Sequence record: OP557969.1
DNA length: 64,000 nt
DNA from: Escherichia phage ph0011
Strand: one strand, 5' to 3'
Under the pieces are notes generated by a model. It saw only the letters and a program-made list of their open reading frames with translations. It was not told the origin of the DNA and did no database searches. Below are positions 39,532-63,510 of the stretch, piece after piece. Each line of letters begins with the position of its first letter. Position 1 is the stretch's first letter. A program made the position numbers and the translations under genes.

Positions 39532-39795
39532 ATGAATATCCAAGATAGATTACAATTGTTGTGCACACTTGAACAAGCTGCTTATGAACTTGTTAATAAA
39601 ATCTCTGAAGAACTTCCCAAAGGAACTAGAGTTCGTGTTCGTGAAATGGATTATGTAACGGGTGAAATTGAAGAAAAAGTTTTAACAGTGGTTAAAGTAA
39701 CATACTATGAGTCAGAGCTATCAATTCAATGTAAGTCAGATAATGGTTACATTTCCTACTATGGCACTGATATAGAGATGGAGGTAATCAAATGA
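39532..39795 (+). CDS. small hypothetical protein
   Basis: In-frame ATG at 39532 after GGTGGA. Confidence 0.5.
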   Translation: MNIQDRLQLLCTLEQAAYELVNKISEELPKGTRVRVREMDYVTGEIEEKVLTVVKVTYYESELSIQCKSDNGYISYYGTDIEMEVIK

Positions 39796-40934
39796 CCCTT
39801 TTACAAATATATGAAGATTTGATGCACTTATGTAATACCCGTGAGGCTTTCTTTTATGTAGATCATAAAAGTCCTGCTGGTGGCACATATCGTGTATTCA
39901 GTTATCGACTAGCATCATATACTGATTTCATGCAACCGAATGCATTGGAAACCCGTGGTTCTATGTGGGAAATCGATGACGATGGCAACATGATACGTTG
40001 TGCATCACGTTGTATGAAAAAGTTCTTTAATGCTTACGAAAATCCTGCTACGATGTTCCCTGCTGATACCAAATGTGATGACATTGCAGTAGTGATGCCT
40101 AAGTTGGATGGTTCAATTATCAGTTCTTACCGTGATAATGATGGTATTATTCGTTGTAAATCACATACCTCATTGTATTCTGACCATGCAATTAACAGTA
40201 CTCGACTAATTAACGAGAACCAGAATTTGTATCAGTACATTGATGAAGCTGAACGTTTGGGTTACACGGTTAACATGGAGTACACAAGCCCAGAGTACCG
40301 AATCGTATTGCCATATCAGGTAGAACAACTATTTGTTCTAAACGTCCGTCATCGTGTAAGTGGTGAATTGTTGTGTGGTAAAGCATTACGCGAAAAGTTT
40401 CCTTGTCTTTCACAGTACAGCACCAATATGACAGGTAAAGATATTCATCACACGTTTCCGGTAAGAAATACATTTCGTGAAAGTGTTGAAGAAGTTCATA
40501 AAATGCTTGATATTGAGGGTTTTGTTTGTATTCTAAAAGATGGGACAATGTGTAAAATAAAGACGGATTGGTATAGTTCATTACATCTAACAAAAGACAG
40601 TATCATTATTGATTCACATTTGTTCGAAGCTGTGTTAAATGGTTCAAGTGACGACTTGAAACAATTATTCAGTACTGACGAATATGCTATGCAAAAGATA
40701 TTGAGAATGGAACAATTGGTATTTTCGTGCTATAATTCATTACAAGATGAGGTAGAAAACTTCGTCAATACACACAAGCACTTGGGACGAAAGGAATTCG
40801 CAATGAAGGTTCAGGAGTGTTTGACTAATGAACTAAATCGTCAGGGCTTGGCCTTTGCAATGTATAACAATAAGTATGTTGATTATAAAGAAACTCTTAT
40901 CAAATACATGAAAGTAGTACTAAAGGACTTTTAG
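39792..40934 (+). CDS. rnlA: RNA ligase 1 (T4 Rnl1/gp63-like)
   Basis: ATGA overlap after GAGG; 380 aa; N-terminal segment FFYVDHKSPAGGTYRVFSYRLASYTDFMQPNALETRGSMWEID closely parallels T4 Rnl1 as I recall it, including the adenylylation-site lysine context. Confidence 0.9.
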   Translation: MTLLQIYEDLMHLCNTREAFFYVDHKSPAGGTYRVFSYRLASYTDFMQPNALETRGSMWEIDDDGNMIRCASRCMKKFFNAYENPATMFPADTKCDDIAVVMPKLDGSIISSYRDNDGIIRCKSHTSLYSDHAINSTRLINENQNLYQYIDEAERLGYTVNMEYTSPEYRIVLPYQVEQLFVLNVRHRVSGELLCGKALREKFPCLSQYSTNMTGKDIHHTFPVRNTFRESVEEVHKMLDIEGFVCILKDGTMCKIKTDWYSSLHLTKDSIIIDSHLFEAVLNGSSDDLKQLFSTDEYAMQKILRMEQLVFSCYNSLQDEVENFVNTHKHLGRKEFAMKVQECLTNELNRQGLAFAMYNNKYVDYKETLIKYMKVVLKDF

Positions 40935-42032: not shown

Positions 42033-42965
42033 ATGCCGACTATCACACTAACAGTTGGTTTACCTGGATGTGGTAAAACAACATGGGCAGTACAAGAGAT
42101 TAAAAAAGCCAAATCCAAGACTATCAATATCAACCGTGATGATATTCGTGAATCGATGGCTGGGTCACATGATGCTTACAAATTCAATGATGCTAATGAG
42201 AAGTACGTAACTAATTTACAGTTCAGTGCAGCAAAATTAGCAGCAGAGAATGGTTGGAATATTATTGTATCCGACACAAACCTTAAACCACATTTCCGTG
42301 AACAATGGAAAATGTGGGCTAAAGATAATGGTTATGATTATAAAGAAAAGAACTTCTATGATGATTTTGTACCAAAGGAAGACCGTGGTGCAGATGTTCA
42401 TGAATTCTTTAAGATTAAAGAGTTTGTAAAACTTTGTAAGAAATATAACCTCCAGCGTGAGCGTTCAGTACAAGATAATATCATTGACACAATGGCAGAT
42501 ACGTACTATTATAGTAAGGCATTGCATATTGGTTACTATGGTAATTCTCGTGAAGAAGCGATTATCGTTGATATCGATGGAACTCTTGCTCATAAATGGA
42601 ACCGCAATCCATTTGATGAAAGTACAGTTCTCCAAGATACACCAGACGAAGAAGTTATTTTGTCTGTTATCGCCGAAGCAGTTTTTCATAAACGCAAGAT
42701 TATTGTCATGAGTGGTCGTACTGAAGGGTGTCGTGCTGACACAGAACAGTGGTTGAAGAATTGGGGTGTTCCCTACGATGCATTGTTTATGCGAGGCATT
42801 GATGATAAACGTCCCGATGATGTTGTTAAATTCGACCTGTACATGAAAAATGTGGTTGATCATTACGATGTTAAAAAAGTATATGATGACAGAGCACAAG
42901 TCGTATTCATGTGGCGTAAACTACTTGGATTGAAAGTGATGCAAGTTGCGGAAGGAAATTTTTAG
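42033..42965 (+). CDS. pseT: polynucleotide 5'-kinase/3'-phosphatase (T4 Pnk-like)
   Basis: ATG after AAGGAG; P-loop GLPGCGKTT in kinase domain; phosphatase DxDGT motif (VDIDGTL); collinear with T4 PseT as I recall it. Confidence 0.92.
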   Translation: MPTITLTVGLPGCGKTTWAVQEIKKAKSKTININRDDIRESMAGSHDAYKFNDANEKYVTNLQFSAAKLAAENGWNIIVSDTNLKPHFREQWKMWAKDNGYDYKEKNFYDDFVPKEDRGADVHEFFKIKEFVKLCKKYNLQRERSVQDNIIDTMADTYYYSKALHIGYYGNSREEAIIVDIDGTLAHKWNRNPFDESTVLQDTPDEEVILSVIAEAVFHKRKIIVMSGRTEGCRADTEQWLKNWGVPYDALFMRGIDDKRPDDVVKFDLYMKNVVDHYDVKKVYDDRAQVVFMWRKLLGLKVMQVAEGNF

Positions 42966-46103: not shown

Positions 46104-46354
46104 TGTTTAACACAGACTATTCACATTTACGATATCTTATGTCTTTGGCTGATGATTTTATTAATGATTTGAAGCCTAAGTATATTGGACAGGAAGTAAG
46201 TTTGATAAACTCTAGGGGTTATGGAAAGTACATTATTACTGATATGTATATTAGCGGTGGAGAATGGCGTTTCAAAGTTAATACGTATCTTAAAGATGGT
46301 TCTTTTGCAGGTACACAAGTTACAAAACACACTAACATTATATGGTTGAAATAA
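46103..46354 (+). CDS. small hypothetical protein
   Basis: ATG at 46103 (TAATG overlap). Confidence 0.5.
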   Translation: MFNTDYSHLRYLMSLADDFINDLKPKYIGQEVSLINSRGYGKYIITDMYISGGEWRFKVNTYLKDGSFAGTQVTKHTNIIWLK

Positions 46355-46356
46355 TA

Positions 46357-47100
46357 ATGAAACATTTCTTAGAAGTTACAGTACCGGATGATAAAGATTT
46401 ATATATTGTTGGTGATTTACATGGTAATGGAAAACTGTGGGACGCGACTAAGAAAGAGTTCGGTGTCACCAACGAAGATTACGTGTTTTCTGTTGGTGAT
46501 GTTATTGACCGTGGTGACCAGAACTCTAAGCTTCTATTTGAATTCCTTTTCGGTGAAAACCGTTTTATGATTACTGGGAACCACGAGATGATGTGTGTTG
46601 ATTCTGAAACTCATCGTGACTGGTATCACTGTTGGGTCCAAAATGGTGGAGATAAGTTCATTGATGAAGTTGGGGTAACAGGCATTCAATTCTTTCGTCA
46701 GTACTTAAATGATCTCCCTATGATTATCCAAATCAATCACCGAGGATTGAAGATTGGGTTAGTTCATGCAGGTGTTCCATTGGAATATACAACATGGGAA
46801 CGTTTCGTTAATGGGACAAAATCACTTAGTGCTGATATAATTGAGAAGTGCTTGTGGGAACGTGATACATTTGACTACTGCAAGAAAAATAACACATATT
46901 ACGCCCCTAGACTTGATGGTATCCATTGCGTATTTAGTGGTCATACCGCAGTATCTGACCCACTCATTTATGGTAATCGTATTTGGATTGATAGTCAGTT
47001 TTTAACAGGTGATTTGACTCTTGCAACTCCACAAAGCGGTGGGATGAGATACTTACGTAAAGAAAAAGATGAGTACTCATTCAATCGTTTCAAAAGGTAA
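46357..47100 (+). CDS. metallophosphoesterase (Ser/Thr-phosphatase-like)
   Basis: Motifs GDLHG, GDVIDRG, GNHE characteristic of calcineurin-like phosphoesterases; start could also be the ATG at 46342. Confidence 0.75.
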   Translation: MKHFLEVTVPDDKDLYIVGDLHGNGKLWDATKKEFGVTNEDYVFSVGDVIDRGDQNSKLLFEFLFGENRFMITGNHEMMCVDSETHRDWYHCWVQNGGDKFIDEVGVTGIQFFRQYLNDLPMIIQINHRGLKIGLVHAGVPLEYTTWERFVNGTKSLSADIIEKCLWERDTFDYCKKNNTYYAPRLDGIHCVFSGHTAVSDPLIYGNRIWIDSQFLTGDLTLATPQSGGMRYLRKEKDEYSFNRFKR

Positions 47101-47376: not shown

Positions 47377-47604
47377 ATGAAAGTAATTCAAGTTATGGTA
47401 GAAAAATACCAAACTGAAGATGGTCGCATTTTTGATTCAGCAAAACAAGCTGAACATCATGAACGTATTATTTCTGGTACACGTAAAGTGTGTCCTACAT
47501 GTAATGGAACACAACAAGTACCGTCAGAGGATTACCGCAGCTTTTATGCTTGTCCACAGTGTGACGGTAAAGGTTACGTAGAAAAACAAGAGGTATGGAA
47601 ATGA
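47377..47604 (+). CDS. small zinc-ribbon protein
   Basis: ATG after AAGGA; CPTC ... CPQC cysteine pairs. Confidence 0.55.
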   Translation: MKVIQVMVEKYQTEDGRIFDSAKQAEHHERIISGTRKVCPTCNGTQQVPSEDYRSFYACPQCDGKGYVEKQEVWK

Positions 47605-48014
47605 AATTATATTGCTTAACTAATATGTATTGTCAAGGTGTCCAAGCTGGTATTCAAGCATTTCATGCTGGAGTTAAACTAATCAAAGAATATGAAGGTT
47701 CTTCGTTCAGTACTATGATTGATGAATGGTACAATGAGCATGAAACTATTGTAGTACTAAATGCGGGTGGACATGATAAATTAAATTCTTATTATAAAGA
47801 CCTTAACAAACAGGGAACAGTTCCGTTTGCCAAATTCAATGAAGCTGGATTGAATGATGCTATTACATGTATAGCAGTACTGTGTACATCTGAAATGGTT
47901 GAAGATATGTCTATTATGCGTATGAATCTTCCTGCTGGTGATCAGTTAATGCAGGTGAAATATGGATCATTATTTGACACATTAAAAGCAATTAGTACTA
48001 TGAGGACTATTTGA
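47601..48014 (+). CDS. hypothetical protein
   Basis: ATG at 47601 (ATGA overlap) 8 nt after AGAGG. Confidence 0.55.
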   Translation: MKLYCLTNMYCQGVQAGIQAFHAGVKLIKEYEGSSFSTMIDEWYNEHETIVVLNAGGHDKLNSYYKDLNKQGTVPFAKFNEAGLNDAITCIAVLCTSEMVEDMSIMRMNLPAGDQLMQVKYGSLFDTLKAISTMRTI

Positions 48015-49213
48015 TGGATTTTCCAGAGAAGTTATTTGTTGCACGTTCCTATATAAACCACAACCAAGTTAATGGTTATATTATCGATGCAACAAAATCA
48101 CACACAAAAGCATTCGAAACAAAGAAAGAAAGAGCTGAGTACTGGGCCAACAAGAACAAACTCCCATCGTTGTATATTGATAATGTACCAACTACAGGTT
48201 TTTGTGTAGTTGATAAATTGACAATTCATGCACGTGAAACATATTTCACTATCCGACATCCTGAAGGATTTGAATTTATGATTAGTTCCAAAAACATGAA
48301 TGATTTGATTATTAATAATGATATAATTAAAGGTGTTTTTGTTGACCCAATGTTTTTCAATAATAACTTAGAGTTGATCAATGGTAAAACAAAAGCATTT
48401 GCTAAGTTGGTTGATAAAGAAAATAAAAAAGAAAAACAAAAAGAAATTGTAGCAGGACTCAAAGTTGGTGATGGCTTCACTTATAACAAAGAAGATTACT
48501 ATTACTGTGGTAAAGTACATGCAATTTGTATAAAGAAAACTAAAGAATTTGCATACCCAGATAAAAGTTCAGTATATCATTTAGTGTTTAATAGTTCTCG
48601 TGGAACTTATGCTTTGAATCAACGTTTGGATAATTACAAACTGGAACCTCGTGCTCTTTTGAATAAGAAGACTACAACAGATGAAGAAATTAAACTTGCT
48701 AATGAATTTTGGCAAAGCTATAGAACAAACAGACATAACCCATTAGGTGAATCTAACATTCCAGTACTGGTACACAATAAATCATTTAAAGCAAAAGACC
48801 TTAAAATTAAATACGAAGAAATAAATGTTGATGATCTTATGAACAATGGACGTTTCAACGAAAACGTACCATTCATGACTAAAGATAATGAACAATCTTA
48901 TCGCGTATTTTTTGGTGTAAGTAATAATACAACACGTAGTTATTACGGGCGTAGTGGAGATTACACTATCCATTACAATGATAAATTTGAACGATTTAGT
49001 GCATATCCAGTTCAAATAGATGATAATGGAATTATGGTAATGGATGTTGATATTAACACACACTCTTCATTCAGTACATGGAATGGTCATCGTTCTCCAT
49101 TCTTTCCACCAAATGAACGCAAAACATCAAGTACTCGTTACTATCAAGATAAGCCGTGTCACGTACAACTAGCAATCAGCAATCCACTTTACATTGGAAA
49201 GTATTATCTATAA
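48014..49213 (+). CDS. hypothetical protein (399 aa)
   Basis: ATG at 48014 overlapping upstream TGA, 8 nt after GAGGA. Confidence 0.65.
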   Translation: MDFPEKLFVARSYINHNQVNGYIIDATKSHTKAFETKKERAEYWANKNKLPSLYIDNVPTTGFCVVDKLTIHARETYFTIRHPEGFEFMISSKNMNDLIINNDIIKGVFVDPMFFNNNLELINGKTKAFAKLVDKENKKEKQKEIVAGLKVGDGFTYNKEDYYYCGKVHAICIKKTKEFAYPDKSSVYHLVFNSSRGTYALNQRLDNYKLEPRALLNKKTTTDEEIKLANEFWQSYRTNRHNPLGESNIPVLVHNKSFKAKDLKIKYEEINVDDLMNNGRFNENVPFMTKDNEQSYRVFFGVSNNTTRSYYGRSGDYTIHYNDKFERFSAYPVQIDDNGIMVMDVDINTHSSFSTWNGHRSPFFPPNERKTSSTRYYQDKPCHVQLAISNPLYIGKYYL

Positions 49214-49224
49214 AGGAATATACA

Positions 49225-50643
49225 ATGAGCATTTTAGCAATTATTGAAAGCATTAAAAATACTAGTAGTACACTAGGCAAAAAAGCTATCCTTGAACAAA
49301 ATAAAGATAACTTAACTTTACAAAAAGTACTGAAATATACTCTCGACCCTTCAATTGTAAGTGGCTATAAGAAACTCCCTGCCGCTGATGACGTAGATCA
49401 ACATATGACGTTAGATGAAGCAATTGATAAGCTAGAATGCATTTACAAGCGTAGCTTGACAGGAAATGCGGGGCGTGATTTCATTGCTTCAGTACTGGGT
49501 TCAGTATCAGAAGATGATCAGGAAGTTCTCCGTAAAATGCTCACTAAGAACCTTGATTGTGGTATCCAAGAAAAGAACTGCAATGATGTGTTTGGTAAAG
49601 GATTCATCAAAGACGAACCATATATGCGTTGTTCTTTGATTGACAAAAAGACTGCAAAGAACATTAACTTCAAAGACTATGGCTATGCAGTCTCTGAGGT
49701 GAAAATGGATGGTCAGTACTTGAACCACGTTGTCATTAATGGTTCATTAACTTCTACATCCCGTAATGGTAAACTCTACGACTTCCTGGGTTGTCGTGAT
49801 GGTGAGATGGCAGGTCTTGCTCACATCATCCAAAGTAAAGATGAACGTTTTAGTAGTGGTGTAGTCTTTATGGGTGAAGGTGTAGTACTGGATACTGATG
49901 GAGAAACCATTCTCCCGCGTACTACAGGTAATGGTATTATTCAGAAAGCTGGAAAAGATTCAATCACTCAAAGTGAAGCAATGCGTACTGTATTCGTTCT
50001 ATGGGATGTTGTTCCATATGATGCATTCAGTGAAGGTGTATGGAATGTAAAACGTAAAGAACGCCGCGAGATCTTAGTTGGTGCAATCAATGAACTCGGT
50101 AGTGAATTTGTTCGTATGGTTGGGTTCCGTAAAGTTAACAACATCAAAGAAGCATTTGAGTACAACAGTGAACTGATGAACAAAGGTGAAGAAGGTTCAG
50201 TACTGAAATGTGAAGATGGTATCTGGAAATCTCATACTTCTCCTAAGCAGTTGAAAATGAAACTTAAGATGCAATTGGATTTGCGTATTGTTGGTTTCAA
50301 TGAAGGTGAAGGTAAGCGTAAAGGTAGCCTTGGTTCTTTACAACTGGAAAGTGCATGTGGTACACTAAAAGTAAATGTAGGTACAGGTATCCGTGAAAAA
50401 GATGCCGAATGGACGTTTAAAACCATTTGGGAAAGAATGCAAGAACTCATTGGTAAAGTAGTAACCGTGGAGTGCAATGATATAGTACAAGATAAGCGTA
50501 CTGGCGAACCATCACTATTTTTACCTGTGTTTATTGAATTTAGATTTGACAAAAACACTTGCGACGATTATACTCGTATCTTAGAAATTCGTGATAGTGC
50601 AGTTGAAGTGTTTTCAAACAGTATTATTGAAGTTTTAGGTTAA
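49225..50643 (+). CDS. 30: ATP-dependent DNA ligase (T4 gp30-like)
   Basis: ATG at 49225 after AAAGGAA; N-terminal KKAILEQNKDN and active-site KMDG (Kx-DG) motif; overall collinear with T4 DNA ligase as I recall it. Confidence 0.9.
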   Translation: MSILAIIESIKNTSSTLGKKAILEQNKDNLTLQKVLKYTLDPSIVSGYKKLPAADDVDQHMTLDEAIDKLECIYKRSLTGNAGRDFIASVLGSVSEDDQEVLRKMLTKNLDCGIQEKNCNDVFGKGFIKDEPYMRCSLIDKKTAKNINFKDYGYAVSEVKMDGQYLNHVVINGSLTSTSRNGKLYDFLGCRDGEMAGLAHIIQSKDERFSSGVVFMGEGVVLDTDGETILPRTTGNGIIQKAGKDSITQSEAMRTVFVLWDVVPYDAFSEGVWNVKRKERREILVGAINELGSEFVRMVGFRKVNNIKEAFEYNSELMNKGEEGSVLKCEDGIWKSHTSPKQLKMKLKMQLDLRIVGFNEGEGKRKGSLGSLQLESACGTLKVNVGTGIREKDAEWTFKTIWERMQELIGKVVTVECNDIVQDKRTGEPSLFLPVFIEFRFDKNTCDDYTRILEIRDSAVEVFSNSIIEVLG

Positions 50644-50662
50644 CCATTTATTGGAGGTAATT

Positions 50663-51454
50663 ATGAAATTTGTCGTAACATCTGATGTACACGGTAGTAC
50701 TGATTACCTCCATAGTGGGGATTACAGCGATACAGTACTGATTATTGCGGGAGACTTCGATGAAGTTAAACGAAGTCGTTATCGTACTGGTATTGAATCA
50801 CTGTGTAAGCAGTTCAAGAATGTAGTTCTGGTTCCAGGAAACCATGAGTATTATGGTTCAAACATTCACAAAACGCATCGAGTACTGTCCGATATGCAAG
50901 ATGAGATTCCAAATTTCATCTTTTTGCAAAACAAATTTGTATGGCTGGATGGTGTACTGCTCGTTGGTAGCACACTATGGACTGACTTTGATAAAGGCAA
51001 TGCACTGGTTAAGTTTGATGCTCAACAAAAGATGAATGATTATAAACACATTCGTCATGGAACAACATCAGAACCGTGGAAACGTAAACTCAAACCTGAT
51101 GATGTTGAGTTCATGCATTATCAGGATAAACAATTTATCAAAAATTCAGTTGATACAGTTCGTCTAATGAATGATAATGATATCAAGGTTGTGGTGGTAA
51201 CACATCATGCACCAAGTTATCAGAGTGTATCTCCGAGATACAAGAATGACTCACTGAATGGATGTTATTGTTCTGATATGGACCAGTACATCGAAGATTT
51301 GGGTGCTGATGTTTGGATTCATGGTCACGTTCATAGTAGCTTTGACTACCACATTGGTAAGACACGTATCATTTGTAATCCACGAGGCTATGAATCGTAC
51401 AGTGGTGCTTGTGAGAATTTTGATTACAATCCAAAATTTGTAGTTGAAATCTAA
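50663..51454 (+). CDS. metallophosphoesterase
   Basis: ATG after GGAGG; motifs SDVHG, GDFDE, GNHE, GHVH typical of the calcineurin-like superfamily. Confidence 0.75.
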   Translation: MKFVVTSDVHGSTDYLHSGDYSDTVLIIAGDFDEVKRSRYRTGIESLCKQFKNVVLVPGNHEYYGSNIHKTHRVLSDMQDEIPNFIFLQNKFVWLDGVLLVGSTLWTDFDKGNALVKFDAQQKMNDYKHIRHGTTSEPWKRKLKPDDVEFMHYQDKQFIKNSVDTVRLMNDNDIKVVVVTHHAPSYQSVSPRYKNDSLNGCYCSDMDQYIEDLGADVWIHGHVHSSFDYHIGKTRIICNPRGYESYSGACENFDYNPKFVVEI

Positions 51455-52301: not shown

Positions 52302-52997
52302 ATGGTTGAACAATTCAATTTTGGTGGTTATGCTAATGGTGAAGTAAGTAACATTTCTATTCCATATGTAGTTGAGAAAGTTAATGGTTCAGAACGTACA
52401 TATGATCTAGCATCTCGTATGATGCAAGACCGTATCATTTTCCTTGATACTGACTTCAATGACCAAATGGCACATATCATCAAACAACAATTGGTGTGGT
52501 TAGACTCACAAGGTGATTCCCCTATTACATTCTATATTAGCTCACCGGGCGGTTCAGTACACGCAGGATTGGGTATTGCAGATGTTGCCAAGTCTTGTGT
52601 TTCACCAATTCGTACTGTAGTAATGGGTTATGCAGCTTCAATGGGGTGTTATACTCAATCGGTAATTGGTACTAAAGGTTTTCGTTTAGGTGGTAAGCGT
52701 TCTTACTTTATGTGTCATCAAGTAAGTTCTGGCACACAAGGTTTAATTACCGACCAGAAGATTTCACTTAAACATTCTGATGAATTGAATACACTATTGA
52801 CCAAAGAAATCGCAGAAGCAGTAGGTGTTTCTCATGAACAACTACTGAAAGATGCAGACCGTGATTTGTGGTTGAATGCTGAAGAAGCACTCGAATATGG
52901 TGAAAAAGGATTTATCGATGGTATTATCCTTGGACCACGCAACGAGAAAGGTCAATACCTAGTCAAGCGTCGTGGTGGTGTTGAAGAGTGGGTGTAA
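52302..52997 (+). CDS. ClpP-like serine protease (peptidase S14 family)
   Basis: ATG after GAGGAAAA; segments RIIFLDTDFND, ISSPGGSVHAG, GYAASMGC (Ser), MCHQ (His) align with canonical ClpP. Confidence 0.85.
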   Translation: MVEQFNFGGYANGEVSNISIPYVVEKVNGSERTYDLASRMMQDRIIFLDTDFNDQMAHIIKQQLVWLDSQGDSPITFYISSPGGSVHAGLGIADVAKSCVSPIRTVVMGYAASMGCYTQSVIGTKGFRLGGKRSYFMCHQVSSGTQGLITDQKISLKHSDELNTLLTKEIAEAVGVSHEQLLKDADRDLWLNAEEALEYGEKGFIDGIILGPRNEKGQYLVKRRGGVEEWV

Positions 52998-55356: not shown

Positions 55357-58029
55357 TTAAGCACTGATTGTTACAGTTGCAGTATCTTTTTTATTACCAT
55401 CCACTGTAGTCACTGTAATGATTACAGAACCTTCTTCTAGAGCAGTTACTAATCCATCATCACTAATAGATACTTTAGTAGGTTTATCTGCACTATAAGT
55501 TACTGATTTGTTAGTTGCTTTAGCTGGTAGAACTTCTGGAACTAGTTGAACTGTTTTAGTTCCTGATAGTGAAAGTTCAGTAGTTTTAGGTGTTAAACTA
55601 ACACTGGATACTGGAACTGGAATATTAACGATTACTGATGTTTGACCAGTAACATCACTACCATCAGCGGCAGTAGCGATAATATTTGCAGTACCATTAG
55701 TTAGTGCAGTTACGATACCAGTATTAGCATCTACTTTAGCAATTTCTGGAGCACTGGATGACCAAATTACATTTTTATTGGTTGCATCACTTGGGGTAAT
55801 TGCAGCAGCCATTTGTTTAGTTGCATTCAATGTAGTCAAAGTTTGATCTTTAGGAGTTACATCAATTGCAGTTACTGGCACTGGAATATTAACAGTAATA
55901 ACACCTTGACCTGTTTTACCACTTCCATCAGCAGCAGTTGCGATAATGTTTGCAGAACCGTTAGTTAACGCAGTTACAACACCAGTACTAGCATCTACTT
56001 TCGCTACAGCAGGTTTACTGGAAGACCATGTTACAGATTTATTTGTTGCGTTAGTTGGAAGAACTTCAGCAGCCATTGCTTGAGTTGCGTTAACAGCAGT
56101 CAATGTTTTAGTTGCTGGAGTAACATTAATAGATGCGACTGGAACTGGAATTGCTACAGTTACCGCACATTTTGCAGTTTTTGCTCCATCAGCAGTTGTT
56201 ACTGTGATATCAGCAGTGCCATTTGCTACAGCAGTGATTAAACCAGTTGGACTAACAGTTGCCACTCCATCAGCAGAAGTACTATAAGTTACTGCTTTGT
56301 TGGTAGCATTAGGTGGTAGTACAGTTGGTGTTAGTTGTTGAGTATCACCGACTGAAGTTAATTTAGCACTTGTTGGAGATACTGATACACTTGCAACAGG
56401 AACTGGAATGTTAACAGTTACCACGCAAACTTTAGAAAATCCACCATCAGATGTGGTTGCTGTAATATTTGCAGTACCGTTTGCAACAGCAGTGATTAAA
56501 CCAGTTGGACTTACCGTTGCGACACCCTCAGCAGAAGTAGTGTATGAAATATCTTTACGACGAGCGTTATCTGGAATAACAGATGCAGTTAGTTGTTGAG
56601 TAGCACCTACAGAAGTTAGGGTTGCTGTCAACGGAGTCATATTAATTCCAGTTACTGGGATCGTTACATCAATCACTGATTCAGCAGTTTTAGCACCATC
56701 ATCAGTGGTAACAGTAATAGTTGTAGTACCGTTATCAACCGAAGTTACTAGACCAGTATTACTAACTTTTGCTACGTCTGGATATGAAGAAACATATGAA
56801 ACTGCTTTATTGGATGCAGTTGCAGGAGCAACGGTTGTTTCTAATTGTTTAGTATCACCTAATGTTGAGAATGTATAAGTACTAGGAGTCATTGTGACAC
56901 CAGATACTGGTGTTTTCACTGTGATTGTAGTAGTGTCCGTTTTAGCACCATCTTCGGTTGTAGCTGTAATCACCACTGTGCCGTTAGCCACACCAGTTAC
57001 TAGACCAGAAGTAGGGTTAACAGTTGCTATATCAGGTGTTGCTGAAGACCACGTGACGTTTTTATTAGTTGCATCATCAGGAGATATTGTAGCAGTTAAT
57101 TGTTGAGTACTGCCAACGTTAATTGATGCAGTTTTAGGAGAAACAACAACACCACTAACTGGAGTTGTTACAGTAACAGTACATTTTGAAACAAATGAAC
57201 CATCAACTGTAGTTGCAATTACATCAGTACTGCCATCTGCAATACCAGTTACCATACCAGTTGGACTTACAGTTGCGAAGCGTGGTATACTGGATGACCA
57301 AATAACACTTTTATCACTTGCATCATCGGGTGATACGGTAGCTGTTAGTTGATGAGTTTTACCAACACCAAGAGATAGAGTTGAAGGAGAAACAACAACA
57401 CCACTAACTGGAGTTGTTACAGTAAATGCACAAACATCGGTGAAACCACCATCATGAGTAGTAACTGTTACATTTGCATTACCATTAGCACGGGCAATTG
57501 CTAAACCAGTTTGAGCATCAACTTCAACTATTGTTGGAGCAGAGGAACTATAACTTACTGTTGGATCATTTGCATAATCTGGATTAATTGTAGCTGATAG
57601 TTGTTGTGTGCTACCAACTTTAAGTGCTACTACTTTGGGTGAAATAATAACACCATTAACTGGTGTAGTATAATCACGTTTAACCACACGACCATTGTTC
57701 AATTTAATAATACGACCCATATAAAGAGTAGCATATCCCTTACTAATCCCATCATCTACATAAATCATAAATGAATTGTCTTGAACCATATTAATTGCGT
57801 CTACTGGCTTAACAGTATTTGGAATGTCGATACCACGGGTATCATACCAACACATGGAAACTTTGTAATATATATCACCATTATCATTGATGAGATCATA
57901 CACGTTACTGGAACGTTGACGGTTAATATATAAAGTTTCGGTTAATACCTTACCATCGATTTTAGCGACAGAAACTTTAATACCACCAATACCAAATGGC
58001 AATTTACCTTCACTAGATATTGCTTTCAT
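55357..58029 (-). CDS. large virion-surface-type protein with about nine to ten tandem Ig-like (Big_2-type) domains
   Basis: 890-aa ORF, the only strong minus-strand gene; AAGGAAA RBS; repeated 85-90-aa units TPVSGV..SP...L.VG.TQQLTATV.P.DATNK.V.WSS..P..A.V...G.VT.VA.GT..ITATT.DG; ~120-aa non-repeat N-terminal domain. Confidence 0.85.
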   Translation of the reverse strand: MKAISSEGKLPFGIGGIKVSVAKIDGKVLTETLYINRQRSSNVYDLINDNGDIYYKVSMCWYDTRGIDIPNTVKPVDAINMVQDNSFMIYVDDGISKGYATLYMGRIIKLNNGRVVKRDYTTPVNGVIISPKVVALKVGSTQQLSATINPDYANDPTVSYSSSAPTIVEVDAQTGLAIARANGNANVTVTTHDGGFTDVCAFTVTTPVSGVVVSPSTLSLGVGKTHQLTATVSPDDASDKSVIWSSSIPRFATVSPTGMVTGIADGSTDVIATTVDGSFVSKCTVTVTTPVSGVVVSPKTASINVGSTQQLTATISPDDATNKNVTWSSATPDIATVNPTSGLVTGVANGTVVITATTEDGAKTDTTTITVKTPVSGVTMTPSTYTFSTLGDTKQLETTVAPATASNKAVSYVSSYPDVAKVSNTGLVTSVDNGTTTITVTTDDGAKTAESVIDVTIPVTGINMTPLTATLTSVGATQQLTASVIPDNARRKDISYTTSAEGVATVSPTGLITAVANGTANITATTSDGGFSKVCVVTVNIPVPVASVSVSPTSAKLTSVGDTQQLTPTVLPPNATNKAVTYSTSADGVATVSPTGLITAVANGTADITVTTADGAKTAKCAVTVAIPVPVASINVTPATKTLTAVNATQAMAAEVLPTNATNKSVTWSSSKPAVAKVDASTGVVTALTNGSANIIATAADGSGKTGQGVITVNIPVPVTAIDVTPKDQTLTTLNATKQMAAAITPSDATNKNVIWSSSAPEIAKVDANTGIVTALTNGTANIIATAADGSDVTGQTSVIVNIPVPVSSVSLTPKTTELSLSGTKTVQLVPEVLPAKATNKSVTYSADKPTKVSISDDGLVTALEEGSVIITVTTVDGNKKDTATVTISA
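55360..57670 (-). repeat. in-frame tandem repeats of about 255-270 bp encoding Ig-like domains
   Basis: Recurrent nucleotide and peptide units visible across the gene body. Confidence 0.65.
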
Positions 58030-58329: not shown

Positions 58330-58935
58330 ATGAAACTATTCTTGAAAGAGATTGTACAAACCGTTGTTTTAATCGCTGCATTAAATTTTCCAGCAGCGGC
58401 AGAAGTTTCAAAAAAAGCATCTGTTCTTCTATTAAATGAACAGGTTGTATCAATGGATGGTGAACTAAATGATAATACGGTACAAGAAGTAGAGCAGTTG
58501 TGGAAAGAAAAAAGATTTAAAATTTTAACAATTACATCACCTGGGGGTGATTTTGATGCTGGTATTAAAATGGCAAATTTTGTTAGAGACAATGGTATAA
58601 ATTTAATTGTTTCTAAATATTGCAATTCGGCATGTACTGTGGTATTCTTTAGTGTATCCCCAGAAAAGCGATATATGACAAATCAATCAGTACTGGGATT
58701 GCATAATATTTCAATCAAAAGTAACGTTAAAGATATGGATCATACTTTCGTATCTGTTAGACAACTATCATCATTTACTGAAGAAATGGCAACAAAAGTA
58801 GGATTTTTATTTACACTATATTCAGCTAATGGTATTCCACCTAGCATTCTATATAAAGTTAGTCGTTCACGTGGTGAAGATGTTGTTATCTTAACAAAAA
58901 CAGACCTAATAAATTACGGTTCAGTCAATCCATGA
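58330..58935 (+). CDS. putative secreted ClpP/SppA-fold serine peptidase-like protein
   Basis: ATG after GAGG; N-terminal signal-peptide-like hydrophobic segment; ITSPGGDFDAG and CNSACTVVFF resemble the ClpP/S49 SPGG and Ser regions. Confidence 0.45.
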   Translation: MKLFLKEIVQTVVLIAALNFPAAAEVSKKASVLLLNEQVVSMDGELNDNTVQEVEQLWKEKRFKILTITSPGGDFDAGIKMANFVRDNGINLIVSKYCNSACTVVFFSVSPEKRYMTNQSVLGLHNISIKSNVKDMDHTFVSVRQLSSFTEEMATKVGFLFTLYSANGIPPSILYKVSRSRGEDVVILTKTDLINYGSVNP

Positions 58936-59003: not shown

Positions 59004-59264
59004 ATGACAAACATCCAGAATTTGACATCTATTATTTTTTATGCTACAGTGGTGATATATGCTATTGTACTTATTTTAACAGTTTTTATATACAAAGATT
59101 ACAAAAAAGGCTTTATTAATAGCACAACAATCAAGTTCAATTCTAAATTTAAAGAAATTATATTTTATGTTTTGACAACATCATATTTGTTGTGTATATT
59201 GTTACTAGGGCCATTGATTTATATTTTATATACAACATTATTTGCAATTGGAGCTATTTTATGA
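59004..59264 (+). CDS. small predicted membrane protein
   Basis: ATG ORF; two hydrophobic helices; stop overlaps next start (ATGA). Confidence 0.5.
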   Translation: MTNIQNLTSIIFYATVVIYAIVLILTVFIYKDYKKGFINSTTIKFNSKFKEIIFYVLTTSYLLCILLLGPLIYILYTTLFAIGAIL

Positions 59265-59857
59265 CATGTATTATTGCACACACTAACGGTGTAACTTCAT
59301 TTATTGCAGGGGACAAGATGGGGAGTGATGGTTTTACGAAATCAATCCAAACAGAGCCGAAAGTGTTTGAGAAAGAATTCGTAAAGATTAGTGGTGATGA
59401 CGGCTTGACTCGTACAAAAGATGTTATGACTTTTGGATTCACTACATCATTTCGTATGGGGCAACTGCTAACTTACAATTTAAATTTACCAGACCAAAAT
59501 TCAAATGAGACGTTTCTACAGTACTTAGTACTGAAAGTTATTCCTATTATTCGCCAAATGTTTAAAGACGAATGGGGTGCACGTGATACATCACAAGATG
59601 TTGGTGGTGGTCAATTTATTATTTTACACAATCATAAGATTTATGAAATTCAGGAAGATTTTTCAGTTCTCCAGTCAAAATCAAGTATTGCATCAGTTGG
59701 TAGTGGTACATATCATGCAATTGCAGCGATGCAAGCATACATTGAACTCGAAAAAGAAACTAACGTACAACTTCATGAACGTATCAAATCTATTTTCAAA
59801 ATTGTCAGTGATAATGTGTCGAGTGTAAGTGAAGAGTTTGATGTATTAAAATATTAA
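59261..59857 (+). CDS. proteasome-type Ntn-hydrolase (HslV-like peptidase)
   Basis: ATG at 59261; N-terminal MTCIIAHTNGVTSFIAGD (Thr directly after Met) and IASVGSGTYHAIAAMQAYIE parallel HslV TTIV...IAGD and IAIGSGGPYA segments. Confidence 0.65.
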   Translation: MTCIIAHTNGVTSFIAGDKMGSDGFTKSIQTEPKVFEKEFVKISGDDGLTRTKDVMTFGFTTSFRMGQLLTYNLNLPDQNSNETFLQYLVLKVIPIIRQMFKDEWGARDTSQDVGGGQFIILHNHKIYEIQEDFSVLQSKSSIASVGSGTYHAIAAMQAYIELEKETNVQLHERIKSIFKIVSDNVSSVSEEFDVLKY

Positions 59858-59872
59858 AATTATAAGAGAGAA

Positions 59873-60067
59873 ATGATGGCATACACAATTTATGAATGGA
59901 TTTTGAGTTTTATTATAGTATTTTTTATGGTTGTAATTTACAATAATGCTAAATGCTTATATAGAGATTTAAAATCCAATGGTTATCATGCAAACAATAA
60001 TTTAATGTATGCCTATCATATTGGAATCATTCTATTATTATCAATATATTTAATTGGCTTTATATAA
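59873..60067 (+). CDS. small predicted membrane protein
   Basis: ATG ORF; hydrophobic 64 aa. Confidence 0.5.
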   Translation: MMAYTIYEWILSFIIVFFMVVIYNNAKCLYRDLKSNGYHANNNLMYAYHIGIILLLSIYLIGFI

Positions 60068-60076
60068 GGATTACGT

Positions 60077-60829
60077 ATGATATCAGAAAAATTCATAAGT
60101 AATGAGGGAAACAAGAGATTACTTATCATCTCAGGAGCAGGTCTTTCCGTTGAAAGTGGTATGGACCCATTTCGTTTCGATGATGGCCTATGGGATACAT
60201 TTAAAATTAATGATGTATGTAATATTGCAAATTTAGATACAAAATATCATATTGTTCATTCGTTTTATAACACGCTGCGTGTTAAACTGGGTCAATGTGA
60301 ACCAAATGCAATGCATTATTTTATAAAATCATTAGAGGAACAATATGGTGATTGTTTCCTTCATATGACTTCAAATATGGATGATCTTTACACCCGTATT
60401 GGCGGTAAAGAACTTAAACTTCATGGTAATTTATGTGAAGTGATAGAAAATTATAGTATTAATGGTGATGATTACAACATTGTTAACTGTGGTTATGAGC
60501 CATATATCCCAAAACATGATATTTTTGCTAAACCAAATGTAGTGATGATTGGTGAGTATCATCGTTATGTAGATGGTGTACGCCTACCAATATATGAAGA
60601 ACGAAATAATGTCTTGAAATCCCTTGATGAAAATGATACAGTTATTGTTATTGGTAGCAGCGATACTGTTCTTGTATGGTCCCGATTGGTAGCATCATTG
60701 CCATGTTATAGTGTCAATGTTAATATTAGAAAGAATGATAATGATTTTTTGTTTAATGAAAAAATTATCAAGCCAGCAACCAAAGCAATACCACAACTAG
60801 AGACTATAATTAAGGAACGTATGAAATGA
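60077..60829 (+). CDS. Sir2-like (sirtuin family) protein
   Basis: ATG after AAGGA; LLIISGAGLSVESGMDPFR (GAGxS.ESG..FR), LHGNL (catalytic His), VVMIGE and TVIVIGSS motifs; canonical Zn CxxC pairs not evident. Confidence 0.78.
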   Translation: MISEKFISNEGNKRLLIISGAGLSVESGMDPFRFDDGLWDTFKINDVCNIANLDTKYHIVHSFYNTLRVKLGQCEPNAMHYFIKSLEEQYGDCFLHMTSNMDDLYTRIGGKELKLHGNLCEVIENYSINGDDYNIVNCGYEPYIPKHDIFAKPNVVMIGEYHRYVDGVRLPIYEERNNVLKSLDENDTVIVIGSSDTVLVWSRLVASLPCYSVNVNIRKNDNDFLFNEKIIKPATKAIPQLETIIKERMK

Positions 60830-61377
60830 GTGTTAAAGAAGTTCCCTTTGGTGAATATGGTTCACGTGCAAATTTTGTATTCTGCTATTTCTTTGCAAGA
60901 GGATGTAATCCCTACGAAAACTATGAGTTGAATGATATACCAGAAGTAAATTTAGTATTACTTCAACTACGATGGGATGGCCTTCTGGGTGGATGTGGTG
61001 GTACAGTTGAAAGTACTGATATCTCATTAGAAGATGCGTTGCGTCGTGAAATACAAGAAGAAATGAACTACTATATTTTTGTTTCTCACCTAAAACCACT
61101 TAAAACGTTTGAAATTTACCCAGGTGCAAACAGTCATAGTTTCAGTTATGAAGTAACATATGATGAGTTAAAATACATTCGTGATGGGTATACAACTGCC
61201 AAACATGCAAGTGCCGAAGTTGCTGGTGTAAATTTATGTCACATTTCTCGTTATTCTAAGGGACAAAATCGAGAAGCGGGATATAATAATCTTATGACAC
61301 AGAACTTCATCGGTACAGCAAAACACGAATTAGCGTATCTGGTACAAAAAGAGAACTTACTAATTAGCTATCTATAG
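60826..61377 (+). CDS. Nudix-like hydrolase (tentative)
   Basis: ATGA overlap with the Sir2-like gene; Nudix-box-like GCGGTVE...RREIQEEMN with non-canonical spacing. Confidence 0.45.
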   Translation: MSVKEVPFGEYGSRANFVFCYFFARGCNPYENYELNDIPEVNLVLLQLRWDGLLGGCGGTVESTDISLEDALRREIQEEMNYYIFVSHLKPLKTFEIYPGANSHSFSYEVTYDELKYIRDGYTTAKHASAEVAGVNLCHISRYSKGQNREAGYNNLMTQNFIGTAKHELAYLVQKENLLISYL

Positions 61378-61387
61378 GAGTTTAAAA

Positions 61388-61708
61388 ATGTCTTACTCTA
61401 TGTTTTTGGATGACATTCGTGATGCAAAACAATATTACCCTAATCAAGATATGGTAGTATGTCGTGATTTTAACAGTGCGTGTGAATATGTTGTTAAAAA
61501 TGGAATTCCAGCATTTGTATCATTTGACCATGACTTGGGTGATATGAGTGGAGACGAAAAAACTGGATATTCTTTTGCTAAATTTCTTATTGATTATATG
61601 TTTGATAATAATATTAAAGAACCGTTTGAGTACTTTGTGCACAGTAGTAACCCAGTTGGTAAAGTTAACATTGAAACATACTTAAACAATGGATTTAATG
61701 CATTATGA
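61388..61708 (+). CDS. hypothetical protein
   Basis: ATG after AGGAG; 106 aa. Confidence 0.55.
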   Translation: MSYSMFLDDIRDAKQYYPNQDMVVCRDFNSACEYVVKNGIPAFVSFDHDLGDMSGDEKTGYSFAKFLIDYMFDNNIKEPFEYFVHSSNPVGKVNIETYLNNGFNAL

Positions 61709-62007
61709 TTCAAACACATATTAAAAGTATCATTTGCACTATACTACTAGGTGTAGGAGTTCTATGGTTCAGTAATTATCACGAGAACACTAAGCGTACA
61801 AATATTCACTATAATACCGCAGAAGTTGTAAGTTTAGGACAATGTAGTGAGTACAAATGTTCGTTTATGTACAAAACCAGTAATGGTGAAGTACGTAATG
61901 GACTATCTAGTGAACCAGTTTCGATTGGTCAAATTGTTTACCAGGAGTGCTGGGAAGAAAAGGTTCGAGGTTCACGATGTTATGTTGAATACGAACCAAA
62001 AATGTAA
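61705..62007 (+). CDS. hypothetical protein with N-terminal transmembrane segment
   Basis: ATGA overlap; hydrophobic N-terminus. Confidence 0.5.
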   Translation: MIQTHIKSIICTILLGVGVLWFSNYHENTKRTNIHYNTAEVVSLGQCSEYKCSFMYKTSNGEVRNGLSSEPVSIGQIVYQECWEEKVRGSRCYVEYEPKM

Positions 62008-62070
62008 TAATAACATGAGTCAATAATAATAGCCGAGTACAAGGATGTACTCACAATTCAAGGATGTTTT

Positions 62071-63510
62071 ATGAAAAAATATACAATTGACACAAACGTA
62101 CTACTATCTGATCCAAATGCATCTGTTGCTTTTGATGGTGCTGCAATCATTCTACCATTTACAGTACTGGAAGAATTGGATTCGATTAAGAGTCGCAATG
62201 TTGATGTTTCACGTGATGCTCGTGTTGCGATTCGTAACATTGAAGCAATTATTGCAGAGGCATCACATAATGAGATTAGTTGTACTGGTGTTAATATTGC
62301 TGATGTTCATACCAATATGAGTCCTGAAAGCAAATTGTTTGTTATTACAAACGAAGAAGCTGAAGCACTAATTCGTACTAAGGCAATTGAAGATAAAGTT
62401 CAAACACTTCTCAAAAGTTCTGTACCAGATGATAAAATTATCTTAGTCGCTTTAGCAACTGATTCAGTACTGGTTACCCGTGATATCAATATGCGTATCA
62501 AGGCTCTTAGTTATGGAGTTGAAGTACAGGATTATCGTCATGATGTGGTTATCGGTGATAGCGATCTAATGCACGTAGGTCAACATCATCTCGATATCGA
62601 TTTCTGGGCAGAATTCAGTGGGATTGAAAATGCTGAAATTAAATCTGAAAAAACAGGTCGCCGCCTGTATCATTATATCCCAACACATCTAATCAAAGAT
62701 CTTCTTCCACAAAATCTTTGTATTGGTGACTATCTATATGATAATGCTGATGTGCTCTTTGTTTACGAAGGTCAGTCTGCAATCGAAGAAGATGATGGTA
62801 GTCTAACACCAGAAGATATTTTGGTCTTCCAAGATATTGGTCAATCTGTTGCATTACGTGCTAATGTATGGGATATTAAAGCTAAGAATGTCAAACAAGC
62901 ACTAGCTATTAATAGTATTCTCGATCCCGATGTACATCTAACAGTTCTACTAGGTTCTGCTGGGACAGGAAAAACACTAATTACGATTGCTACTGCACTA
63001 GAGTTAGTTCTGGAAAAACGTAAATACGACCGTATTATCTTCTCTAAAACACAAGATTCACAGTTTGAAGATATCGGATTCTTGCCTGGTTCAGAGGCCG
63101 AGAAAGTGATTCCATTTTGTGGTCCAGCGATTGACGCACTAGAGTACCTACATAAAGATGATGCAAATCCACAAGGTAGCATTGAGGAAATCATGAAACG
63201 TAATGTTATCCAGTTCAAAGCATTGAACTTTATTCGTGGTCGTTCTTTTGCCAATACAATTCTAATTGTGGATGAAGCACAGAACTTAACACCAGCCCAG
63301 CTAAAAACTGTCTTGACAAGAGCCGGAGAAAACTGTAAAGTAATCATACTTGGTAACCTAGCACAGATCGATAACAAGTTTATCAGTCCAGTAAACAGCG
63401 GTCTAACTTATGTAACTGAGAAATTTAAAAATTGGTCTGGTTGTCGTATCATTGAATTGGAAGGTGTTGTTCGTTCACCACTTGCTGAATTTGCTGAAGA
63501 AAATATGTAA
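62071..63510 (+). CDS. phoH: PhoH-like ATPase with N-terminal PIN domain (YlaK type)
   Basis: ATG after AAGGA; PIN-like N-terminus (YTIDTNVLLSDPNA...LEELD); Walker A LLGSAGTGKT, Walker B ILIVDEAQNL. Confidence 0.88.
   Translation: MKKYTIDTNVLLSDPNASVAFDGAAIILPFTVLEELDSIKSRNVDVSRDARVAIRNIEAIIAEASHNEISCTGVNIADVHTNMSPESKLFVITNEEAEALIRTKAIEDKVQTLLKSSVPDDKIILVALATDSVLVTRDINMRIKALSYGVEVQDYRHDVVIGDSDLMHVGQHHLDIDFWAEFSGIENAEIKSEKTGRRLYHYIPTHLIKDLLPQNLCIGDYLYDNADVLFVYEGQSAIEEDDGSLTPEDILVFQDIGQSVALRANVWDIKAKNVKQALAINSILDPDVHLTVLLGSAGTGKTLITIATALELVLEKRKYDRIIFSKTQDSQFEDIGFLPGSEAEKVIPFCGPAIDALEYLHKDDANPQGSIEEIMKRNVIQFKALNFIRGRSFANTILIVDEAQNLTPAQLKTVLTRAGENCKVIILGNLAQIDNKFISPVNSGLTYVTEKFKNWSGCRIIELEGVVRSPLAEFAEENM

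Follow-up and report, generated by a model that had tools for sequence, protein, structure and literature searches.

What does a jumbo phage do with a sirtuin and a Nudix hydrolase whose genes lie side by side? The question is raised by two plus-strand genes of Escherichia phage ph0011. The window analysed here is a 64-kb stretch of record OP557969.1 that is AT-rich (32.5% guanine plus cytosine) and very compact. The first gene (60077–60829) encodes a zinc-less, CobB-like (class III-like) sirtuin of 250 aa, and the second (60826–61377) encodes a Nudix pyrophosphohydrolase of the NUDT16/X29 type with 183 aa. Judged from gene order, the pair is the head of a conserved five-gene block (60077–63510). 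The block may couple nicotinamide adenine dinucleotide (NAD+) chemistry to RNA ends, in the manner of the RNA 2'-phosphotransferase Tpt1/KptA. This model was ranked first among the explanations considered, as a tentative choice.

The comparative sample consisted of 80 IMG/VR viral loci that encode relatives of the sirtuin, 16 of which are related jumbo-phage loci. Domains and families were scanned with Pfam, PHROG, NCBIfam and PADLOC-DB, with the PDB by sequence and with Foldseek on AlphaFold2 (AF2) models.

An earlier, sequence-only reading had placed two open reading frames (ORFs) at these positions with an ATGA overlap, and both were confirmed in the sequence. The DNA is indeed phage-borne and 121Q/PBECO4/UE-S1-like. 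The Sir2-like and Nudix-like domain calls of that reading were right according to Pfam, PHROG and fold matches, and the CxxC zinc pairs that it found missing are missing (only C120 and C138 occur in the region). The catalytic residues N100, D102 and H116 of the sirtuin are present and invariant in the alignment, and the Nudix box is genuine by profile (PF22327 and PF00293 were passed, and REIQEE is intact). Neither of the two conditions that the reading had named as refuting it thus holds.

Gene order and the five-gene block

The sequence-only reading had taken the ATGA start/stop overlap (60826–60829; ATG at 60826–60828, TGA at 60827–60829) as the sign of a functional pair. A functional link is supported, but by another kind of evidence. 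The overlap itself is uninformative because 4-nt (NTGA) overlaps are present at 24 of the 123 same-strand junctions in the window; a further 45 of the 123 overlap in other ways. The junction between the third and fourth genes of the block at 61705 is another ATGA overlap. Relatives have a gap of about 50 nt or a 123-aa ORF between the two genes. Hence, the overlap was rejected as evidence for coupling. The intervening ORF is found in one jumbo subgroup (L004:6750–7121, also L005–L007) and had no Pfam match.

What supports the link between Sir2 and Nudix is a gene order that appears to have been kept across divergent phages. The order Sir2, Nudix, cREC, 100-aa membrane protein and PIN-PhoH2 was found in 15 of the 16 related jumbo loci, and the sixteenth ends at Sir2. 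The sirtuins of these loci share 42–63% identity. In the window, the genes for sirtuin, Nudix, cREC and PIN-PhoH2 lie on one strand within 3.4 kb. The two genes are thus not the isolated pair that had been described.

The third gene (61388–61708, plus strand) encodes a receiver-like protein of 106 aa, cREC, with a predicted role in cyclic-phosphate processing (Pfam cREC_REC PF20274, E 1.5e-22; PHROG 1479). Its motifs LDD, FDHDLG and HSSNP are common to the cREC of the rV5-like locus described below. The product of the fourth gene (61705–62007, plus strand) is a conserved protein of 100 aa that has four cysteines and carries a membrane anchor at its N-terminus (PHROG 14661, E 1.4e-41). It occupies the same slot in every complete related jumbo locus at 39–60% identity. 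The fifth gene (62071–63510, plus strand) encodes a PIN-PhoH2-type protein of 479 aa, in which a PIN nuclease domain at the N-terminus (Pfam PIN_4, E 2.9e-20) is combined with a PhoH ATPase/RNA helicase domain at the C-terminus (E 2.8e-47). It is the best-conserved gene of the block (66–79% identity across jumbo loci). Its match to the NCBIfam model of the RNA 5'-3' helicase PhoH2 reached 166.7 bits, which is under the cut-off. No plus-strand terminator was detected between 57.9 and 63.87 kb. A promoter scan gave 39 promoter-like sites with 34.9±6.3 expected and was uninformative for operon limits.

The Nudix gene is linked more tightly to cREC than to Sir2. In about 20 of 56 homologue clusters, Nudix and cREC are fused into one protein of ~300 aa, e.g. 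in Cronobacter phage GAP32 and Yersinia phage fHe-Yen9-04, which argues that both act on the same molecule. Moreover, three metagenomic contigs of a more distant phage group (L098–L100; L098:6001–8309) carry a Nudt16-like Nudix, cREC and PIN/PhoH with no sirtuin within 6 kb, so the tie of the Nudix gene extends to PIN-PhoH2. In L098, proteins of 248 and 155 aa take the upstream slots of Sir2 and 2H (a phosphoesterase gene of related loci, described below). That these two are cryptic sirtuins or ADP-ribosyltransferases found no support, with an hhalign probability of 0.2% and no Pfam match.

A sirtuin with an intact NAD+ site and no zinc module

The sirtuin matched Pfam SIR2 (PF02146) with 71.5 bits (cut-off 24; E 1.1e-19) over residues 20–198, covering profile positions 1–178 of 180, and PHROG 2162 with an E of 2e-77. 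By sequence, Escherichia coli CobB was its nearest solved relative (E 4e-22), ahead of Sir2Af1/Af2, SIRT5 and Sir2Tm. The AF2 model, built from an alignment of 19 homologues, had a predicted local distance difference test (pLDDT) score of 89.4. In Foldseek, CobB was again the best match (template modelling (TM) score 0.76–0.85), and class III sirtuins came next.

The NAD+ site is intact: G20-A21-G22, S27-G28, F32-R33, N100, D102, H116-G117 and G193-S194-S195 are all present. N100 and D102 align with the TQNID motif of CobB, and H116 aligns with HMHGE. Across the 19 homologues, G20, G22, S27, G28, N100, D102 and H116 are invariant, and A21 is Asn in the RaK2-like lineage. In that lineage (L003:6001–6732 on a 345,809-bp contig, P0011 and P0013), GNG replaces GAG and the FR residues of the cofactor loop are lost, with Asn, Asp and His kept. 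Judged by these residues, NAD binding may be impaired or altered in the RaK2-like sublineage.

The sirtuin has no CxxC pair, and C120 and C138 are the only cysteines of the zinc-module region. The former zinc region is still folded as β-strands in the AF2 model, with a pLDDT of 85–91 for the block. The zinc cysteines are missing throughout the jumbo-phage, T5-like and rV5-like sirtuins, and both CxxC pairs are kept in the more distant phage sirtuins P0030, L068, L069, L072 and L076. By this distribution, the lack of the zinc cysteines is a feature of the clade.

Is this protein a phage CobB? It resembles CobB, SIRT5 and Sir2Af1/Af2 in the Rossmann fold with a small domain and in the GAGxS, TQNxD (Asn/Asp), HG (His), GSS and FGE-loop (G-E) residues. 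It differs from CobB and the class III enzymes by an identity of only ~27%, by the absent zinc cysteines, by changes in the YNARR motif and in the V-x-P strand and by an 8-residue insert after the FGE-type loop, which is present as IGE. The class III Y-x-x-R motif is altered: CobB has FYNARRRQL, and the phage protein has FYNTLRVKL. Leu67 stands in place of the first Arg, whereas Tyr64 and the following R68 are retained, and R68 is invariant in the alignment. We take the Arg and Tyr of the Y-x-x-R motif in CobB YNARR to be the acyl-recognition motif of class III. Also lost, in the ph0011 lineage (TVLVW) and in T5-like phages, is the proline of the V-x-P strand that follows GSS; in sirtuins, this residue helps to hold the substrate peptide. 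All NCBIfam matches were deacylase models, at 85–93 bits with cut-offs of 243–320. The CobB equivalogs NF040867 and NF001755 gave 84.9 bits (cut-off 320) and 92.6 bits (cut-off 318), and the cut-off was not reached. CobB orthology was rejected because these scores are far under the equivalog cut-offs.

These results bear on the explanation that the sirtuin is a true NAD-dependent lysine deacylase acting on host or phage proteins, with the Nudix enzyme hydrolysing O-acyl-ADP-ribose or ADP-ribose to adenosine monophosphate (AMP) and (acyl)ribose-5-phosphate. This is close to the chemistry of the sequence-only reading, in which the Sir2 product is cleaved by the Nudix enzyme. In its favour, the top sequence and fold matches (CobB, SIRT5 and Sir2Af1/2) are all deacylases, as are the NCBIfam models that matched, and conservation extends to the catalytic Asn, Asp and His and to the G-E of the FGE loop. 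ADP-ribose is both a ligand and a substrate of NUDT16 (structures 5w6x and 6b09). O-acetyl-ADP-ribose is also hydrolysed by some Nudix enzymes. The scores far below the CobB equivalog cut-offs, the replacement of the acyl-recognition Arg by Leu67, the lost V-x-P proline and the lost zinc module all speak against a deacylase. It also leaves unexplained why cREC, RNA ligase, kinase and HAD phosphatase genes recur next to such sirtuins in three phage lineages, and why Nudix and cREC are fused. We consider this explanation unlikely, though it comes second to the RNA-end model.

The sequence-only reading had set the gene against the NAD-depleting SIR2 domains of host defence, as a possible decoy or regulator. 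A defence-type NADase or its decoy could deplete NAD, exclude superinfecting phages or mimic the SIR2 effectors of the host, and several anti-phage systems do use SIR2 domains as NADase effectors (PMC9503650). The phage protein shares the superfamily and the NAD+-binding core with ThsA, DSR1/DSR2, SIR2-HerA and SIR2-APAZ/pAgo. Unlike these effectors, it matched no defence family of PADLOC-DB at E≤0.01 and is a single 250-aa domain, with no SLOG, HerA, APAZ/pAgo or TIR partner fused or adjacent. Its closest matches in sequence and fold are all canonical sirtuins (CobB, SIRT5 and the archaeal Sir2Af proteins). The phage is of the virulent type, and the gene lies among early-looking genes of metabolism and repair. 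A defence-type SIR2 identity was rejected on the missing PADLOC match, and the defence framing as a whole is very improbable. A Macro partner of the SirTM type was likewise sought, and no Macro domain was found among the eight genes scanned around the locus.

A Nudix enzyme of the NUDT16 type

The Nudix protein matched Pfam Nudt16-like (PF22327) with 67.3 bits (cut-off 27), NUDIX (PF00293) with 28.4 bits (cut-off 21.1) and PHROG 9999 with an E of 2e-86. Human NUDT16 was the best PDB match by sequence (E 3e-12). It was also the best match of the AF2 model (pLDDT 93.6) in Foldseek, with a TM score of 0.80 and an E of 1e-13; the next Nudix protein outside NUDT16 reached only 6e-7. The matched NUDT16 structures include the ADP-ribose complex 5w6x, also 6b09, and the flavin adenine dinucleotide (FAD) complex 6x7u.

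The Nudix box reads G59-x5-D65-x8-R74-E75-I-Q-E78-E79, and its unusual spacing is identical to that of human NUDT16. Among 18 homologues, neither the box nor R49 nor E131 varies; in a set of 27 sequences, D65 alone drops out, with one substitution. The likeness to NUDT16/X29 thus comprises the fold, the spacing of the box and the equivalents of R49, E75, E78, E79 and E131. The differences are an identity of 24–26%, the frequent fusion to cREC and Asn81 in place of the terminal Gly (xGU) of the box. The NUDT16-like paralogue TIRR/syndesmos lacks the catalytic residues, in contrast to the phage protein. Since the NAD+ site of the sirtuin and the metal site of the Nudix protein are intact, both are probably active enzymes.

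The NUDT16-like family is small. Out of 1.84 billion cluster representatives, an exhaustive HMMER search with the Nudix query found 214 at E≤1e-3. A distant member, a 278-aa Nudt16-like Nudix on an 888-kb metagenomic contig (L096:3798–8837), is flanked by nicotinate phosphoribosyltransferase (NAPRTase) and an NMNAT-like gene on one side and by a glutamine-dependent NAD synthase on the other. By its gene content, this cluster looks like NAD salvage or biosynthesis, which would tie the Nudt16-like family to NAD and ADP-ribose dinucleotides. Human NUDT16 strips the ADP-ribose that TRPT1 (human Tpt1) or PARP10 adds to RNA phosphate ends (PMC6582358).

The identity of the Nudix protein and the conservation of PIN-PhoH2 allow for a role in remodelling or decay of RNA 5' ends. 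Host transcripts would lose NAD caps, other nucleotide caps or their 5' pyrophosphate to the Nudix enzyme and would then be unwound and cut by PIN-PhoH2. The part of the sirtuin would be to act on NAD-capped RNA or to regulate these events. RNA decapping defines the NUDT16/X29 family (Pfam name and X29 structures), and one crystal structure of NUDT16 contains FAD (6x7u). Within the block, PIN-PhoH2 is the most conserved protein, is always adjacent and matches, though under the cut-off, the NCBIfam model of an RNA 5'-3' helicase. This explanation, however, gives no role to cREC and leaves the sirtuin without one, the homologue in the NAD-salvage cluster points to small dinucleotides and not to RNA, and any RNA substrate of the Nudix enzyme is putative. 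We regard it as improbable.

Neighbourhoods of the sirtuin clade in other phages

The zinc-less sirtuin clade occurs in the 80 IMG/VR loci across jumbo, T5-like and rV5-like phages. In the rV5-like loci L044, L046 and L047, genes for a T4 Rnl1-type RNA ligase, cREC, a kinase-only P-loop protein of 134 aa, Sir2 and a DNA ligase follow one another; L035, L036 and L048 show looser or partial versions of this arrangement. In ~35 T5-like loci, the gene for a HAD_SAK_2 'Swiss army knife' RNA-repair phosphatase comes right after Sir2. Three types of phage sirtuin neighbourhood (jumbo-phage, rV5 and T5/SP15 type) were described by Iyer, Burroughs, Anantharaman & Aravind (Viruses 2022, section 3.7.3; PMC9503650), who proposed a Tpt1/KptA-like, NAD-dependent removal of RNA 2'-phosphate, and our analysis of ph0011 reproduced these neighbourhoods independently. 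The parts of the fungal Trl1 plus Tpt1 pathway are a ligase, a cyclic phosphodiesterase, a kinase and a 2'-phosphotransferase (PMC10946426, PMC11417386). The rV5-type set of ligase, cREC as putative cyclic phosphodiesterase, kinase without phosphatase domain and NAD-using transferase mirrors these parts, which supports the Tpt1-like model.

The window agrees with the published jumbo-phage neighbourhood (type 1, prototype Serratia phage BF; PMC9503650) in its four linked genes and, among its relatives, in the Nudix-cREC fusions. It differs in the conserved 100-aa membrane protein between cREC and PIN-PhoH2 and in lacking a 2H gene, as do 121Q and RaK2; the function given in that publication is a prediction. 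In 14 of the 16 jumbo loci (L004–L017; L004:5537–5983), a 148-aa 2H phosphoesterase is encoded directly upstream of Sir2, and it matched the Pfam model of Acb1, a protein directed against cyclic oligonucleotide-based antiphage signalling systems (anti-CBASS), with 57.9 bits (E 1.2e-15). A tblastn search for a 2H homologue across the 64-kb window found none (best E 0.39), and a Pfam scan of the seven genes that follow PhoH in 121Q yielded nothing. The slot in the window is filled by a small ORF of 64 aa (59873–60067, plus strand), apparently a two-helix membrane protein, whose membership of the block is uncertain. It had no Pfam or PHROG match and is conserved in 121Q only (86% identity).

The 2H protein raises the possibility of a counter-defence island. 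The block would destroy immune nucleotide signals or toxic ADP-ribose derivatives from host TIR, SIR2, RES or CBASS systems. Nudix and cREC, with the Acb1-like 2H protein in relatives, would be the scavengers, and the sirtuin would be an accessory, e.g. converting or ADP-ribosylating a host factor. The Aravind group had earlier proposed that cREC, Nudix and Macro domains of jumbo phages degrade ADP-ribose-derived signals (PMC7824862). The 2H proteins upstream of Sir2 pass the Acb1 model, the set of Nudix, cREC and PIN/PhoH occurs without Sir2, and a distant Nudt16-like Nudix lies inside an NAD-salvage cluster. Weighing on the other side, the window has no Acb1-like gene, and a NAD-consuming sirtuin is an odd partner in a module that guards the NAD/ADP-ribose pool. 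The RNA ligase and kinase neighbours also stay unexplained, unless they too are counted as counter-defence genes. We know of no immune-signal activity of cREC or of a NUDT16-like enzyme. A counter-defence island was judged to be quite unlikely, less so than RNA 5'-end decay.

A tentative model of NAD-dependent RNA-end repair

In the model ranked first, which is that of Iyer et al. (PMC9503650), the sirtuin would use NAD+ as donor of ADP-ribose to a phosphate on cleaved or re-ligated RNA. This chemistry would resemble that of Tpt1/KptA, with an unrelated fold. The cREC protein would open the cyclic phosphate, and the NUDT16-like Nudix enzyme would split the ADP-ribose pyrophosphate into AMP and a phosphoribose product. 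Optionally, it would also strip ADP-ribose left on RNA phosphate ends. The build-up of a dead-end or toxic ADP-ribose derivative would thereby be prevented. We infer every substrate and reaction step of this scheme, including the predicted activity of cREC. The likeness to Tpt1/KptA is a functional analogy: both would consume NAD+ and would be encoded next to RNA ligase, kinase and cyclic-phosphate enzymes. The phage protein has the sirtuin Rossmann fold, not that of an ADP-ribosyltransferase, and is no member of the Tpt1/KptA family.

We favour this model because the active sites of both enzymes are intact, the gene order is conserved, Nudix and cREC are fused in many relatives and the clade has RNA-repair neighbours. 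The known activity of NUDT16 on RNA ends, the NAD link of the Nudt16-like family, the published proposal (PMC9503650) and two RNA-repair genes of the window point the same way. Moreover, the product of Tpt1, with a pyrophosphate and a cyclic phosphate, would suit a fused Nudix-cREC enzyme. The two RNA-repair genes, both on the plus strand, encode a T4 Rnl1-type RNA ligase (39792–40934; Pfam RNA_lig_T4_1 and T4_Rnl1_C), ~19 kb upstream of the block, and a T4 PNKP-type polynucleotide kinase/3'-phosphatase (42033–42965; Pfam AAA_33 and HAD_PNKP, E 6.9e-43), ~17 kb upstream. By their domains, they are a classical phage tRNA-repair pair.

Several points weigh against the model. We know of no sirtuin for which RNA or a phosphate is an established acceptor, and the phage sirtuin is nearest in sequence and fold to the true lysine deacylase CobB, with the FGE-type loop kept as IGE. 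The phage also has a complete T4-type PNKP including the 3'-phosphatase domain. Since no 2'-phosphate is left on the ends that this enzyme heals, a need to remove one is not obvious. Cyclic phosphate ends are not expected from PIN nucleases, which depend on metal ions. In L098–L100, Nudix, cREC and PIN/PhoH occur with no Sir2 nearby, which means that the clean-up enzymes do not strictly depend on the sirtuin. As the 2H protein of 14 of the 16 relatives scores as anti-CBASS Acb1, a counter-defence reading fits equally well; the window itself has no 2H gene. The NAD-binding loop of the RaK2-like sirtuin is degraded, and the activity of cREC is itself a prediction.

A wider claim is that, with the zinc-less clade, a sirtuin family would for the first time have a nucleic-acid phosphate, and not acyl-lysine, as its natural acceptor. 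Such sirtuins would be non-homologous replacements of Tpt1/KptA, either removing RNA 2'-phosphate at the expense of NAD+ or ADP-ribosylating RNA phosphate ends. We hold this to be possible but doubtful, slightly more so than the model itself. If true, phages carry a 2'-phosphate RNA-repair route of the fungal and plant style beside the classical T4 route.

Genomic source and other features of the window

The host genome of the pair is that of a jumbo coliphage of the 121Q/PBECO4/UE-S1 group, genus Asteriusvirus (Asteriusvirus-like). Over a 2.3-kb stretch around the pair, the DNA identity was 91.3% to UE-S1 and 88.8% to 121Q. The orthologues in 121Q (gp476/gp477), PBECO4 and UE-S1 have the same order and the same overlap, and their proteins are ~94% identical to those of ph0011. 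Apart from strain-level sequence differences, only an Ig-repeat gene, which is much longer in ph0011, sets the window apart from them. In the records of 121Q and UE-S1, the pair is already annotated as 'Sir2-like protein' or 'NAD-dependent deacetylase' and as 'nudix hydrolase', and annotations also exist in PBECO4 and others.

The Ig-repeat gene (55357–58029, minus strand) encodes an 890-aa protein with nine Big_2 immunoglobulin-like repeats. It is the sole long minus-strand gene of the region and lies 2 kb upstream of the pair. Since 121Q has only a 126-aa Ig-domain structural protein there, the repeat array is strongly expanded in the ph0011 window.

Between the RNA-repair genes and the sirtuin block, all on the plus strand, are genes for a PTH2-like peptidyl-tRNA hydrolase, two calcineurin-like phosphoesterases and an ATP-dependent DNA ligase (jointly 47595–48014, 46342–47100, 50651–51454 and 49156–50643). 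Three protease-like genes are clustered on the plus strand (52302–52997, 58330–58935 and 59258–59857): ClpP, a divergent ClpP-like protein with a hydrophobic, signal-like start and an HslV-family peptidase. The HslV-family gene ends just upstream of the 64-aa ORF that precedes Sir2. Scans of the 64-kb window for tRNA genes and Rfam families found neither.

Novelty and biological meaning

The sequence-only reading had called a phage-borne copy of Sir2 unusual. It is not: the 80 IMG/VR loci encode relatives, the family has its own PHROG, and the gene is annotated in 121Q, PBECO4 and others. The genes, the PHROGs, the neighbourhood and the mechanistic hypothesis were already known from deposited genomes and from PMC9503650. 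The ph0011 window adds nothing beyond the 121Q/PBECO4 genomes and that paper, and it holds no new variant. Literature searches for experiments on the phage sirtuin, cREC, the phage Nudix or a sirtuin 2'-phosphotransferase, made in one searchable library, returned only two comparative papers of the Aravind group. Four points may go beyond what the consulted literature states outright: that the Nudix protein belongs to the NUDT16 family, that the 2H protein matches the Acb1 model, that some loci have Nudix, cREC and PhoH2 but no sirtuin, and that the distant NUDT16-like gene lies in an NAD-salvage context.

The value of the locus hence lies in experiment rather than in sequence: it is a biologically interesting, putative enzyme system. 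If the sirtuin were a deacylase, it would be a phage-encoded eraser of host protein acylation. If the RNA-end model is true, the sirtuin would represent a new reaction class of its family, ADP-ribosyl transfer to RNA phosphate, and cREC would gain its first biochemical role. Phages would then run an NAD-dependent branch of RNA repair with their own disposal of by-products. Such a branch would be relevant to the survival of phages in the face of host ribonuclease defences and to the spending of NAD+ in infected cells.

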